Positions 41,658-56,839 are shown, numbered from the stretch's first letter. The stretch: 64,000 nt of DNA from an uncultured Gemmatimonadota bacterium (GCA_964490075.1 CAZBBK010000002.1:50105-114104), one strand, 5' to 3'. Translations and numbers: made by a program. The notes: a model not told the origin generated them from the letters alone.

Positions 41658-42398
41658 CTACCAGCAGAGGGTCTCACCCTGCTCGGCCCAGCCAACCCGC
41701 CCTTCCTTGCCGTGGCAGGGCCGGCGGTCCGCGCAGCGGTGGGTGAGAAGCACCCGCCTCGCTCCGGCCGCCAGCGCCGCCTCCGCCCCCGCCTCGGGCT
41801 CCACGTGCAGGGCATCGATGACCGCCAGGTCGACGCCCGCGGCGTCGCGCCGCACCTCGGCCGCGTCGGCCAGATCGCCGGAAACGTAAAGATGATGCTC
41901 TTGGTGCGAGAACAGAAACGAGTAGCTGCGCGTGAGCGCCGGTGCGTCTCCCGCCGGCAGATGGGCGTTCGGAAGCGCCCGCAGCCGCAATCCACCCGGC
42001 AAGTCGTGCGGTCGCCCGGTCTCCAGGGGGCGGGCGCCGACCACGCCTTCGATCCGCCGCCGGTCCATTCCGAAGAAGCGCAGCATGGCGTGGAGCTCGG
42101 GCAGCGCCTCGTCAGGCACCAGCAAAGGCACGGCCGCCCGCTTGCCCTCGCCGGCCAGCCGCAGTCTCTGCACCAGGCCCGGCAGCCCTCCCGCGTGGTC
42201 GGCGTGCAGGTGGCTGACCACGATCGCCCCCAACTCGAAATCGCCGTGCCCCGCTTCAGCCAGCGCCCGGGAGACTCCGTCGCCGGCGTCGACCAGGATC
42301 GGCGCGGCCCCCACCACCCGCACCAGCAACGAGGCGTGGGGGCGGCCGGTGGGGCTCAGCGCGCAGCCGCTGCCGAGCACCGTGATCGAGCGCGTCAT
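41658..42398 (-). CDS. MBL-fold metallo-hydrolase
   Basis: HxHxDH motif (SHLHADHAGG); last gene of the minus-strand glycan operon. Confidence 0.7.
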   Translation of the reverse strand: MTRSITVLGSGCALSPTGRPHASLLVRVVGAAPILVDAGDGVSRALAEAGHGDFELGAIVVSHLHADHAGGLPGLVQRLRLAGEGKRAAVPLLVPDEALPELHAMLRFFGMDRRRIEGVVGARPLETGRPHDLPGGLRLRALPNAHLPAGDAPALTRSYSFLFSHQEHHLYVSGDLADAAEVRRDAAGVDLAVIDALHVEPEAGAEAALAAGARRVLLTHRCADRRPCHGKEGRVGWAEQGETLCW

Positions 42399-43657
42399 CG
42401 ATGCCCCACCGCGGACGCGTCGCGGCGCTCCCGCAGGGTGTCGACCAGGAGCTGCTCGATCTCGTCGACCATCTGCTCCTCGCGGAAGCTGGTCCGAATC
42501 AACGTCCGCGCCGCCCTGCCCAGGCGCTCCCGCAGCGCGGGATCGTCGGCCAGGCGAAGCAGCGCCCGTGCGCAGCCCCGCGCGTCCTCGGCCTCGAAGA
42601 CCAGGGCGTTCTCGCCATCCTCCAGGATCTCCGCCGAACCGCCCCGGGTGGTGCCGGCCACCGCGATGCCGGTCGACATCGCCTCCATCAGGACCACCGA
42701 GAAAGGCTCGGCCCAGATCGAGGGCAGCACCAGCACGTCGCGGGTGAGCAAGAGCTCCGCCACCTCGGCGCGCCCCACCCGGGGGCGGATGCGCACCACC
42801 CGCTCCAGGTCGGCACTTCGAATCGTCTCGCGAAGTCCTTCCAAATACTCGGGCTGAGAGGGTCCCACGATCTCCAACTCGATGTCGCCGCGGCGCGGCT
42901 CCGCGTCCTTGCCGGCGATCCGGACCAGGGCTTCGACGGCGGTGTGCACCCCTTTGTGCGGCAGCACCTGGCCCAGATAGAGAACCCGCAGCCGGCCATC
43001 CGTGCTGCGCCGCGGCTCGCCCTCGAAGGAGGCGATCGGCACCCGGTTGTAGATCACCCGTGGCTGGCGCAAGCGCACCCCCGCCGCCCGGTGCTGCTCC
43101 AGCAAGGCGCGGCTGACGAAGCTCGCGTGGGCGATCTCGATGTCACCCCCGGCACAGGTCGGGATCCGCGCCAGGAGCGGCCGCAGGGAGCGCTTCGCCC
43201 GGCGTTTCCAGGGGCTCGCGGGCAGCGCGTCGATCCACGAATCGAGCGGCTTGTGCAGCACCCAGTCGTCGGACAGGTAGAAGGCGGTCTTCCAGGGTTT
43301 GCCGGGCGCCTGGGCCGCCTGGATCAGCGAGTGGGTGAGGTTGCCCATGTTCCAGAAGAACACCACCTCGGGCGCGAATTCGGCGGCGGCGGCATGGAAG
43401 ACCCGGAGCGAGCGCCACTCACGGAGGTTCTTGGCGACGAATCCGTGACGCCGCGGATGGTGGAAATCGGGGGTCTCGAGGGTCAGAGCTCGCCACACAT
43501 GCCCCTCGATGGTCGGTCGCTGGACGCCGTGCGTGGAGGTCAGCACACGCAGCTCGTGACCCCGCTCCAGCAGCCCCTTCACGGCACCGATACAGAGCTC
43601 CTCGTAGCCCCCGAGCGCCAGCGGCGGGTAGACGTTGGAGACCACCAGGACCCTCAT
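42395..43657 (-). CDS. glycosyltransferase family 4 (group 1)
   Basis: start MRVLVVSNVYPP; C-terminal GT4 EX7E region (...VLPSIWAEPFSVVLMEAMSTGIAV); 4-nt overlap with the downstream gene. Confidence 0.75.
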   Translation of the reverse strand: MRVLVVSNVYPPLALGGYEELCIGAVKGLLERGHELRVLTSTHGVQRPTIEGHVWRALTLETPDFHHPRRHGFVAKNLREWRSLRVFHAAAAEFAPEVVFFWNMGNLTHSLIQAAQAPGKPWKTAFYLSDDWVLHKPLDSWIDALPASPWKRRAKRSLRPLLARIPTCAGGDIEIAHASFVSRALLEQHRAAGVRLRQPRVIYNRVPIASFEGEPRRSTDGRLRVLYLGQVLPHKGVHTAVEALVRIAGKDAEPRRGDIELEIVGPSQPEYLEGLRETIRSADLERVVRIRPRVGRAEVAELLLTRDVLVLPSIWAEPFSVVLMEAMSTGIAVAGTTRGGSAEILEDGENALVFEAEDARGCARALLRLADDPALRERLGRAARTLIRTSFREEQMVDEIEQLLVDTLRERRDASAVGHR

Positions 43658-54717: not shown

Positions 54718-55907
54718 AGGTCGCGCTCCAGGCGCTCGTAGAGCTCGATCAGCTTCGACTTCTCCCGCTGCCAGTTGTAGCGCTCGCGGGCCGCCCGGCG
54801 GCCGAGGCGGCGCATCTCCTCCAGGCGCGGTGAATCGAGGACCCGGACGATCGCCGCCGCGATGGTGCCCGGCTCCAGGTCGCCGATCAGCTCGCCGGCG
54901 GGGTAGCGCATCAGCACCTTGCGGTTCTCGGGAAGATCGGAAACCACCACCGGCAGGCCCGCCATCAGGTACTCGAAGAGCTTGTTCGAGGTGCACAGGC
55001 GCCGCGACAGGTTGATCGGATCGGTGGTCATCACGCCGACGTCGGCCGCCGCGGTGAAGGCGGCCAGCTCGTGCGCCGGCACGGTGTCGATGAAATGGAC
55101 CCGCATCCCCACACCCAGCGCCGCGGCCTGGCGCTCCAGGTCGTCTTTGATCCATCCCCAGCCGATCAGCACCAGCACCACTTCGGCCGGCAGCAGGGGC
55201 AGCGCGCCGATCAGGCGGTCGAGCCCCCGTCCATGGGTGAAGTTGCCCTGGTAGAGGACCAGCTTGCACCGATCGCCGATTCCCAGGCGGGTCCGCAGCG
55301 GCTCCGGCTCGATCTCTTCGCGGAGCGGCGGGTAGTTGTCGACCGGCAACGGCGCGGGCGGGCCGTAGCGCCGCGCCAGCACGTCGCGATACGACTCGTT
55401 GGTGGTGATATGCGCATGCGCCTGGCGGTAGCCGCGGCGCTCCGCCCAGCGTCCGAGCCATTCCATCCAGGTCAATGCCAGGCGGTAGGCGAGGCTCCGC
55501 GCGCCGCCGCCCCGCGCGGGAAAGGTCTGATTCAGAGAATCGACGAAGAGCTCATGAGAGTCGTAGACCAGGGGTACCCGGTGGGTCCGAGCCAGGGCCC
55601 GCGCCGGCTCCAGCAGGTCGAGATCGTGGGCATGGACGAGGTCGAAGTCCCACTCTCGCGCCGCCGCGTGGGCCAGCTCCGCGAAATGCCAGGGCCAGAG
55701 CAGCACGTTCCAGAGCAGGGCCGGCCGCACCCGGCGGATCGCGACGCGCCGGAAGTGAATCCCGTCCAGGATCTCGGTGGCCGGCGTGCGTTCGGACGCG
55801 GTGGCGAAGATCGTGACCTGGTGGCCGGCCTCGACCAGGGCGCAAGCCTCGCGCCGCACCCGCGCGTCGCGAAAGCCGTCGTTCGAGAGCAGCATGACGA
55901 TGCGCAT
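54714..55907 (-). CDS. glycosyltransferase family 4
   Basis: internal ATG (MRIVMLLSNDGF) in the 753-aa frame; GT4 C-terminal motif (NLSRRLCTSNKLFEYLMAGLPVV). Confidence 0.7.
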   Translation of the reverse strand: MRIVMLLSNDGFRDARVRREACALVEAGHQVTIFATASERTPATEILDGIHFRRVAIRRVRPALLWNVLLWPWHFAELAHAAAREWDFDLVHAHDLDLLEPARALARTHRVPLVYDSHELFVDSLNQTFPARGGGARSLAYRLALTWMEWLGRWAERRGYRQAHAHITTNESYRDVLARRYGPPAPLPVDNYPPLREEIEPEPLRTRLGIGDRCKLVLYQGNFTHGRGLDRLIGALPLLPAEVVLVLIGWGWIKDDLERQAAALGVGMRVHFIDTVPAHELAAFTAAADVGVMTTDPINLSRRLCTSNKLFEYLMAGLPVVVSDLPENRKVLMRYPAGELIGDLEPGTIAAAIVRVLDSPRLEEMRRLGRRAARERYNWQREKSKLIELYERLERDL

Positions 55908-56839
55908 CAGCGTGGCTCGTCGAGCGGGCCCGCGCGGTGGCCGCGCCACTCGGCAAACAGCTGCGTGAAGCGATAGAGCAGCACGTGGCCATGGTGGCCC
56001 AGGCGGCGGTCGCGGCGCAGGACATGAGCGTGGACTCGGAGGTTGGCGCAGAGCACCCGCCACTGCCCGAAAAGGCTCGCACGCGGATGACCGAGTCGGG
56101 CCTGGGCTTGGGCCTCGGTGAAGGCACGGCGGTAGAGCGAGCCGAAGCCGAAGTCGTGGGAGTGGTAGACCGAAGCCTGGGGCAGGTAGGCGATCTGGAA
56201 GCCGCGGCGCTGCTGCTCGGCCGCCCAGGCCCGGTCCTCGCCGATCGGCAGGCTTTCGTCGAAGGGCAGCTCCTCCCAGCGGCTGCGCGGCAGCGCGGCG
56301 TTGGCGTTGGAGAGGATCGCCTCGTGCAGATAGCGCCGGGGGTGGGGGCCGAAATTGATGCGGTAGTCGTGGGCCTCGACCGGGTTGTCGTGGGGGCGCG
56401 GGATCTGGCGTCCGAAGGTGGCGCAGAGCGTGGGGTCGGCGCGCAGGGGAGCGGTCAGCTCGCTCAGCCAGCGGCGGTGGGTCGGGGTGGCGTCCTGCGA
56501 CAGGAATACCAGGGGGTCGCCCTTCGCGGCGCGGGCCCCGAAGTTGAGCGAGCGCCCGTAGCTGAACTCGGCGAGGGAGAAGTCGACCAGGCGCACGCGC
56601 GGGTCGCGGGCCGCGGCCGCCAGCGCCACCTCGCGACTGCCGTCGACCGATCCGGAATCGACGCAGACCACCTCGAAGGGGATCTCGGGCGAATCCTGGC
56701 GCAGGACCGCATCGAGCGTGGCACTGAATCGGACGCGCTCGTTCCAGGTGCGAACGATGACGGAGATCGCGTCGGCCTCCTCTGGATGAGTCGTGGCGGG
56801 GTCGAACTCGGGCGACGGAAGACTGTAGCATTGGCCCAT
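55907..56839 (-). CDS. glycosyltransferase family 2
   Basis: ISVIVRTWNE...VCVDSGSVDGS...SQDA (DxD-like); start codon uncertain (ATG 56839, or GTG 56881 which would overlap divergent grxC). Confidence 0.55.
   Translation of the reverse strand: MGQCYSLPSPEFDPATTHPEEADAISVIVRTWNERVRFSATLDAVLRQDSPEIPFEVVCVDSGSVDGSREVALAAAARDPRVRLVDFSLAEFSYGRSLNFGARAAKGDPLVFLSQDATPTHRRWLSELTAPLRADPTLCATFGRQIPRPHDNPVEAHDYRINFGPHPRRYLHEAILSNANAALPRSRWEELPFDESLPIGEDRAWAAEQQRRGFQIAYLPQASVYHSHDFGFGSLYRRAFTEAQAQARLGHPRASLFGQWRVLCANLRVHAHVLRRDRRLGHHGHVLLYRFTQLFAEWRGHRAGPLDEPR

Follow-up and report, generated by a model that had tools for sequence, protein, structure and literature searches.

What an uncultured Gemmatimonadota bacterium makes with thirteen successive genes for glycosyltransferases, tailoring enzymes and membrane proteins is the question raised by a 64,000-nucleotide (nt) stretch of its DNA (GCA_964490075.1 CAZBBK010000002.1:50105-114104), the whole of which is called the window here. 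An earlier note on this DNA had read the genes, g1–g13 in our numbering, as a surface-glycan pathway primed by a WecA-like enzyme, assembled by a Wzx-type route and tailored with carbamoyl and methyl groups, and this overall reading fits every test run in our study. The cluster is probably a native chromosomal operon that makes a lipid-linked hetero-oligosaccharide at the inner membrane, methylated and carbamoylated and with a periplasmic branch. The observed gene order, domain and fold assignments, motifs, conserved synteny and native composition carry this reading; in particular, it draws on the 13-gene order shared with the related metagenome-assembled genome (MAG) ARS67, the Pfam assignments, the pairing of g8 with g4, the relatives of g6 and g7, the LptD, Omp85 and TamB proteins encoded in the window, and a GC content, overall and at third codon positions (GC3), that matches the surrounding genes.

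The cluster is conserved in order within its own lineage. The exact g6 protein, together with identical neighbours, occurs on marine metagenome contigs (JGI 3300009128, on a 162-kb contig; ENA SAMN10231893), and the organism is a marine, uncultured member of the Gemmatimonadota. The nearest genomes by g6 are two Gemmatimonadota MAGs with 79% identity. Synteny in related genomes, which the earlier note had proposed as a check, was borne out by ARS67 (locus L006), where all 13 genes stand in the same order at 57–86% amino acid identity, from g13 (57%, in the same position) through g1 (65%) and g11 (76%) to g8 (86%), the most conserved gene of the cluster. L006 additionally carries an AsnB-type amidotransferase gene and a further GT4-like gene (L006 3000–5108 and ~6600–7811), and these insertions fall exactly at the two largest gaps of the window cluster, g3/g4 and g4/g5; a search of the window for remnants of either extra gene found none. 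Another related locus, L005, keeps the gene order in part and is likewise wider between g4 and g5. These gene differences suggest a lineage-specific cluster varying by gene gain or loss, as is typical of surface-glycan loci. Our synteny survey of carbamoyltransferase homologues covered 80 genomes, namely the two Gemmatimonadota MAGs and 78 other loci. The g6 homologues of the latter are 40–53% identical to g6 and lie in unrelated contexts in Planctomycetota, Marinobacter, Acidobacteriota, Nitrospirota and DPANN archaea. No conserved linkage of the other 12 genes to the g6 homologue was found in these 78 loci, 9 of which gave scattered weak matches (29–35% identity) to g5, g8 or g9.

The composition of the cluster is native. 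Its GC content is 0.697 compared to 0.700 in the other 40 genes of the window (Mann-Whitney p=0.81), and its GC3 is 0.901 compared to 0.892 (p=0.30); thus there is no sign of horizontal transfer, and the word "island" used in the earlier note finds no support in that sense, as the gene order is also conserved in a related Gemmatimonadota MAG. The hybrid histidine kinase flanking the cluster has only 21–41% identical relatives on the metagenome contigs, and the related contigs L005 and L006 stop at the cluster borders. The window also encodes Omp85/BamA, TamB, LptD (LptD_2) and a WbqC-like protein, and the presence of LptD_2, Omp85 and TamB indicates a diderm host whose outer membrane is served by lipopolysaccharide (LPS) transport.

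Domain searches reproduced every functional call of the earlier note, through Pfam, PDB searches or motif inspection, including the zinc ribbon of g3, the NPPY motif of g7 and the HxHxDH motif of g13. Pfam assignments are above threshold for 12 of the 13 genes and at threshold for g4. Among the predicted cytoplasmic glycosyltransferases, g1 matches PF00535 at 72.7 bits, with all its NCBIfam matches far under their cutoffs; g2 matches Glyco_trans_4_4, Glyco_transf_4 and Glycos_transf_1; g5 matches Glyco_transf_4 and Glyco_trans_1_4; and Glycos_transf_1 is found in both g9 (124.7 bits, with Glyco_transf_4 at 102 bits) and g12 (104 bits). Membership of g2 and g9 in the PEP-CTERM/XrtA-associated glycosyltransferases was rejected, as the scores are far under cutoff. 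The initiating enzyme g10 matches PF00953 (Glycos_transf_4, the WecA/MraY family) at 104 bits, has about 11 hydrophobic segments, and reaches 101 bits on the WecA model TIGR02380, under its cutoff of 326. The flippase g11, with about 12 transmembrane (TM) segments, scores 69 bits on Polysacc_synt_3 (PF13440), 64 bits on Polysacc_synt (PF01943) and 42 bits on MatE, the first two above cutoff, and its NCBIfam MOP flippase and WZX_like matches are under cutoff. Within the cluster, only g4, g10 and g11 are polytopic membrane proteins. The last gene product, g13, carries Lactamase_B_2 (71.9 bits) and HxHxDH on a metallo-beta-lactamase (MBL) fold, and its PDB matches (arylsulfatase, ELAC2 and Apyc1) are all weak.

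The proposed pathway follows mostly from family membership, which also underlies the predicted substrates and reaction order. As a WecA/WbpL-type polyprenyl-phosphate N-acetylhexosamine (HexNAc)-1-phosphate transferase (PNPT), g10 would transfer HexNAc-1-phosphate to undecaprenyl phosphate (Und-P), and the five cytoplasmic glycosyltransferases (GT2 g1; GT4 g2, g5, g9 and g12) would extend the product to about a hexasaccharide. While the glycan is still cytoplasmic, g6 would, like TobZ, consume carbamoyl phosphate and ATP to O-carbamoylate one sugar; g3 would methylate a sugar, probably at a hydroxyl; and g7 would methylate a nitrogen, either a sugar amine, as GenN does, or a planar amide or carbamate nitrogen. 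The Wzx-type MOP protein g11 would then flip the unit linked to undecaprenyl pyrophosphate (Und-PP). In parallel, g8 would charge Und-P with a single sugar, which g4 would add in the periplasm as a branch residue. Polymerisation, chain-length control and ligation or export would be carried out by unlinked genes or would not occur.

The membrane protein g4 is, by its predicted fold, a GT-C class A (GT-C(A)) glycosyltransferase cut down to its membrane core. Its sole Pfam match is PMT_2, at exactly the cutoff, and sequence searches of the PDB returned nothing with either the single sequence or a 62-sequence profile, so that fold comparison alone gave matches: ArnT (20.6), ALG12 (19.9), STT3B (19.1), Pmt4 (18.6), Pmt2 (18.0), PglB (16.1) and AftB (15.6), and in addition ALG3, ALG9, PimE, AftA, AftD and EmbA. 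Foldseek agrees, with WaaL first appearing at rank 10 with a TM-score of 0.28. The residue D82 is invariant in the family and belongs to an "APDE" segment directly behind TM2, in the first extracytoplasmic loop, which is the place of the catalytic acidic residue in GT-C enzymes. Of the two possibilities offered earlier for g4, "GT-C-like or Wzy-like", the former is retained as GT-C class A, and the fold searches rule out a Wzy polymerase or a WaaL ligase. At 50% identity, the g4 family comprises 2082 clusters when E≤1e-30 is required and 8506 when E≤1e-10 is, and to our knowledge it is uncharacterised. Three distant g4-homologue loci are all polysaccharide clusters: Wzy_C is close by in 3/3 (adjacent in two and three genes away in L085), a GT4 gene is nearby in 3/3, a g3-like Methyltransf_23 gene is nearby in 2/3 (L085 and L086), and a GT4 that is 40% identical to g5 stands next to the g4 homologue in L085.

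The probable partner of g4 is g8, a candidate polyprenyl-phosphate glycosyltransferase (PPGT) of the DPMS/GtrB/ArnC type judged by its sequence relatives. It matches PF00535 at 126 bits, its best PDB relatives are dolichyl-phosphate mannose synthase (DPMS, 5mlz), ArnC and GtrB (E 1e-16 to 2e-9), and its best NCBIfam matches, AglJ and PpgS, are both under cutoff. A polyprenyl-phosphate-sugar synthase together with a GT-C enzyme is a hallmark of periplasmic three-component glycosylation (PMC11127046; bioRxiv 10.1101/180810). The combination of a PPGT-like g8 with a GT-C enzyme g4 therefore supports the Und-P-sugar/GT-C branch that had been proposed from the gene content. As caveats, g8 has no TM helices, and the flippase candidates of the cluster comprise one MOP protein, g11, and no GtrA-like small membrane protein.

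The tailoring enzymes belong to known families, and the pairing of an NPPY N-methyltransferase with a carbamoyltransferase is the only mildly unusual feature of the locus. Their description as "unusual" thus stands in part: both are members of established groups (sugar O-carbamoyltransferases and NPPY sugar/amide N-methyltransferases), and it is their recurring pairing that is noteworthy. The methyltransferase g3 scores 89.9 bits on PF13489, and its Cys20, Cys23, Cys43 and Cys46 form a CxxC-x19-CxxC zinc ribbon. The carbamoyltransferase g6 scores 193.8 bits on Carbam_trans_C and 123.2 bits on Carbam_trans_N (cutoffs 27 and 24) and matches, along its whole length, 7xb6 (E 6e-70, aligned over residues 9–559), TobZ (E 3e-65) and GdmN in the PDB; it has an HHxxH motif at residues 142–146 and scores 115 on the NodU equivalog compared to a cutoff of 1000. 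The methyltransferase g7 scores 48 bits on PF05175 (MTS methyltransferase) and carries NPPY at residue 248. The g7 family, a small one of which about 15 full-length members were found, retains NPP[YF]; across 12 members, N248 and P250 never vary and P249 is conserved in at least 90%. Among solved structures, g7 comes closest to GenN (gentamicin 3''-N-methyltransferase; E 3e-12), to an apramycin N-methyltransferase and to 7rc2, the last from a paper on iterative N-methylation of asparagine side-chain amides (PMC9060474).

The genomic contexts of g7 relatives bear on its activity. A g7-family gene lies near a carbamoyltransferase gene in 5/8 loci examined, in two module types. The g7 gene comes straight after the carbamoyltransferase gene in the three Gemmatimonadota loci. 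In two other metagenome organisms (L088 10001–15613 and L172 2935–10592), a five-gene module recurs that encodes a g7-like NPPY methyltransferase, a GDSL-family protein, a 612-aa carbamoyltransferase, a protein of about 114 aa with no Pfam match, and a CE4 polysaccharide deacetylase. This carbamoyltransferase is only 32% identical to g6 and is a different one, and in L172 an AsnB amidotransferase gene lies immediately upstream of the module. The remaining contexts are an exopolysaccharide cluster that includes a CE4 deacetylase gene and is truncated where the contig stops (L089), a locus broken up by transposases (L090), and the unrelated surroundings of a distant member (L091). Together, the relatives and contexts make N-methylation of a sugar-borne nitrogen the best-supported activity of g7. 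Its presumed target could be any of three nitrogens, that of a de-acetylated amine, of a uronamide or of the carbamate. In AsnB-carrying relatives, the target of a g7-type enzyme could be a uronamide nitrogen. We consider it unlikely that g6 and g7 act on the same group, with an O-carbamoyl group being installed and its nitrogen then methylated to give an N-methyl-carbamoyl sugar. The substrates of the closest relatives of g7 are planar amide nitrogens (of Gln for PrmC, of Asn for AerE) or sugar amines (for GenN), and this possibility draws on the pairing in 5/8 loci and on a window cluster in which no deacetylase supplies a free sugar amine. No report of an N-methyl-carbamoyl sugar in natural polysaccharides turned up in our searches of the literature.

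The 13 genes are tightly packed on one strand and may be read as a single transcript. The window has about 70% GC, and its raw open reading frame (ORF) lists are full of spurious frames; genes were called with a GC3 frame plot and a codon-score caller trained on the long ORFs of the window, which resolved 53 genes. The run of 13 consecutive minus-strand genes at 41658–56839 (Table 1) was returned by the caller and by public calls on identical metagenome contigs, with slightly different start codons, and agrees with the coordinates first assigned to it. With the caller's starts, neighbouring genes overlap by 1 or 4 nt at 8/12 junctions (1 nt at g1/g2; 4 nt at g6/g7, g10/g11 and g12/g13, among others), and the number rises to 9/12 if g12 starts at ATG 43657, whose ATGA is shared with the stop of g11. 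The other junctions have gaps of 13–31, 34 and 78 nt, 78 nt being the largest. The earlier statement that "almost all" junctions overlap is therefore slightly generous, although the overlaps themselves are confirmed. In the rest of the window, 11/31 same-strand junctions overlap by 1–4 nt (Fisher p=0.09 compared to the cluster); the tight packing is real, yet not distinctive of the locus. No terminator-like hairpin was found in any intergenic gap of the cluster, and this, the 13 same-strand genes, the maximal gap of 78 nt and the 8–9 overlaps all count in favour of one operon. Terminator-like sites in general (7 compared to 4.5 expected) are not above shuffles; five on the cluster strand are inside coding sequence or upstream of g1, and two on the plus strand are on the wrong strand. 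The promoter scan found 0 promoter-like sites, and Rfam searches over 39–58 kb found no RNA family.

Table 1. Position and assignment of the 13 genes of the cluster (positions counted from the first letter of the window).
Gene	Position	Strand	Assignment
g1	55907..56839	-	GT2 (GT-A) glycosyltransferase, 310 aa; first gene of the operon
g2	54714..55907	-	GT4 (GT-B) glycosyltransferase, 397 aa
g3	53752..54717	-	S-adenosylmethionine (SAM) methyltransferase (Methyltransf_23) with N-terminal zinc ribbon, 321 aa
g4	52354..53673	-	Predicted minimal GT-C class A membrane glycosyltransferase without large periplasmic domain, 439 aa
g5	51192..52319	-	GT4-like glycosyltransferase, 375 aa (one public call: 353 aa)
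g6	49489..51192	-	NodU/CmcH/TobZ-type O-carbamoyltransferase, 567 aa
g7	48281..49492	-	NPPY-motif N-methyltransferase with family-specific N-terminal domain, 403 aa
g8	47586..48284	-	Short GT2, candidate polyprenyl-phosphate glycosyltransferase, no TM helix, 232 aa
g9	46415..47554	-	GT4 glycosyltransferase, 379 aa (public calls: 385 aa)
g10	45225..46418	-	WecA/WbpL-type polyprenyl-phosphate HexNAc-1-P transferase (initiating enzyme), 397 aa
g11	43654..45228	-	MOP-superfamily (Wzx-type) flippase, 524 aa
g12	42395..43657	-	GT4 glycosyltransferase, 420 aa from ATG 43657 (416 aa from GTG 43645)
g13	41658..42398	-	RNase Z/ELAC-like MBL-fold hydrolase, 246 aa; last gene

The immediate neighbours of the cluster deserve brief description. 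A glutaredoxin gene (56838–57137, +) is divergent from g1, which starts at 56839 on the minus strand. Its CGYC active site lies upstream of the called start at 56913, placing the true start between 56838 and ~56877. If its ATG is at 56838, the start codons of the glutaredoxin gene and g1 share the palindrome CCATGG with a 2-nt overlap, and the 13-gene operon would have no room for a promoter between the two genes. Toxin-antitoxin pairs lie directly downstream of the cluster (MNT/HEPN, 39858–40549, -; VapB/VapC, 40764–41389, +), and a second NTase/HEPN pair lies just beyond the transketolase on the other side (L174 276–991). A defence-system reading, prompted by these pairs and by "GT4-conflict" matches of g9 and g12 and an "Anti-Pycsar Apyc1" match of g13, was rejected: the GT4-conflict scores (38–41 bits) are far under the generic GT4 scores of the same proteins, and Apyc1 reaches 24 bits on g13 compared to a cutoff of 50.

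Elsewhere in the window, all on the plus strand where a strand is given, the Omp85/BamA gene (9423–11270) is followed by the TamB gene (11300–15121), both upstream of a kinase/regulator pair; directly downstream of TamB, this pair (15121–17885, +) encodes a histidine kinase and then a protein with the PorX-like architecture of a response regulator joined to a PglZ domain. LptD comes after the WbqC-like gene (24563–25309, +), with an ABC ATPase gene between them. A 631-aa protein (19516–21411, +) within a tsaE-tsaB-rimI operon has a signal-peptide-like N-terminus and a HELQH (HExxH) motif and gave no Pfam match. Two paralogous BNR/sortilin-like proteins (464 and 466 aa) are encoded in tandem at 30592–31986 and 32190–33590 (+), a fused shikimate kinase/3-dehydroquinate synthase at 4246–5889 (+), and a patatin-like phospholipase at 59928–61711 (+), followed by a XerC/D-like tyrosine recombinase gene.

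Several observations weigh against a complete Wzx-type pathway making a tailored and branched glycan. The window's 53 genes gave no match to Wzy_C (PF04932), Wzz (PF02706), Poly_export (PF02563) or WaaL domains, in agreement with the earlier failure to see wzz, wza or waaL. The polymerisation and attachment steps are thus unlinked or absent, and the Wzx/Wzy pathway is only half documented; the earlier note rightly left the final acceptor open. The cluster has neither a deacetylase nor nucleotide-sugar synthesis genes, leaving the source of a free sugar amine for g7 unexplained, and it offers one flippase candidate for two lipid-linked intermediates. None of the three distant g4-homologue loci has a g8-like short GT2 beside the g4 homologue, so the evidence for a functional pairing of g8 with g4 comes from the operon of this lineage. 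No NCBIfam equivalog cutoff is reached by any of the 13 proteins, so these are not orthologues of any named enzyme of established function, and the matches assign no sugar specificity. Additionally, g13 has no assigned pathway role.

In one rival reading, the product is a single non-polymerised oligosaccharide, such as a lipooligosaccharide-like outer core, a protein glycan or a glycolipid, with g4 acting as an oligosaccharyltransferase-like en-bloc transferase of the flipped Und-PP-oligosaccharide. We regard this as rather improbable, as g4 has no periplasmic domain and g8 is present. In another rival reading, g11 is the donor flippase for an Und-P-monosaccharide within a three-component system of g8, g11 and g4, and the main chain is exported by unlinked machinery. 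MOP/MATE and Wzx-family proteins flip an Und-P-sugar in the Ribf system of Citrobacter youngae O1 (PMC11127046), GacK is proposed to do likewise in the carbohydrate pathway of group A Streptococcus (10.1101/180810), g11 also scores on MatE, and the cluster has no GtrA-like small flippase. However, the best scores of g11 are on the Wzx-type models PF13440 and PF01943, the 4-nt overlap couples it to the initiating PNPT g10 in the usual arrangement of a repeat-unit flippase, and the window has no ABC transporter (Wzm/Wzt) or synthase for main-chain export, and we find this role for g11 quite improbable. It is very improbable that the 13 genes are a chance juxtaposition of unrelated units, for instance a PrmC-like protein methyltransferase (g7) and an RNase Z-like RNA-processing enzyme (g13) beside a smaller glycosyltransferase cluster: g7 does match PrmC/HemK models and g13 RNase Z models, both sub-threshold, and the rest of the window does not have significantly fewer overlapping junctions, but the synteny is conserved. 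A native operon for a tailored, lipid-linked hetero-oligosaccharide with a periplasmic branch remains our preferred reading.

Gemmatimonadota are abundant in soil and sea, and we know of no characterised envelope or surface-glycan pathway in this phylum, although no search of the literature was aimed at one. With this locus, a surface-glycan assembly operon of these little-studied bacteria is annotated in full, and current models are left unchallenged. It also draws attention to two widespread, uncharacterised enzyme families, the minimal GT-C(A) proteins of about 440 aa (>2000 clusters at 50% identity) and the small family of carbamoyltransferase-associated NPPY methyltransferases.

The individual enzymes resemble known ones with clear differences. 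Like the NodU/CmcH/TobZ carbamoyltransferases, g6 has a Kae1-like N-terminal and a YrdC-like C-terminal domain, with E values of 1e-62 to 1e-70 to solved members, and its identity to homologues outside its own Gemmatimonadota lineage is about 40–53%. With the NPPY N-methyltransferases (GenN; the AerE/PoyE-type Asn amide enzymes, 7rc2; PrmC), g7 shares the class I SAM fold and the NPPY motif IV, and its similarity to GenN reaches before the SAM-binding core (g7 residues 116–250). Unlike GenN, which has NSP, g7 keeps the canonical NPPY; unlike GenN, 7rc2 and PrmC, it has its own N-terminal domain of about 115 residues, and the genes of its small family mostly lie close to one for a carbamoyltransferase.

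As a whole, the locus is comparable to a WecA/Wzx-type assembly cluster with an embedded three-component side-branch system, and is of the kind expected for a diderm. It resembles Wzx/Wzy loci primed by a WecA/WbpL-type PNPT, such as those for enterobacterial common antigen (ECA) and O-antigen and the wbp locus of Pseudomonas aeruginosa, in having the PNPT coupled to a Wzx-type MOP flippase and a run of GT2 and GT4 genes with tailoring enzymes in one operon. In contrast to these loci, it lacks Wzy, Wzz, WaaL and outer-membrane polysaccharide export (OPX) genes within 64 kb as well as nucleotide-sugar synthesis genes, its composition is native rather than low-GC, and its host is a Gemmatimonadota bacterium. 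The likeness to three-component systems (GtrA/GtrB/Gtr*, ArnC/ArnT, GacI/GacK/GacL, C. youngae ORF15/14/12 and mycobacterial PpgS/Rv3779) lies in a short GT2 (g8) and a predicted GT-C(A) enzyme (g4) in one operon, with a MOP-family protein as a possible flippase. Unlike GtrB and ArnC, g8 is devoid of TM helices, and unlike the three-component systems, the cluster has no dedicated GtrA-type flippase and its g4 is a 439-aa minimal GT-C enzyme, with PMT_2 at threshold and no accessory periplasmic or carbohydrate-binding module (CBM) domain.

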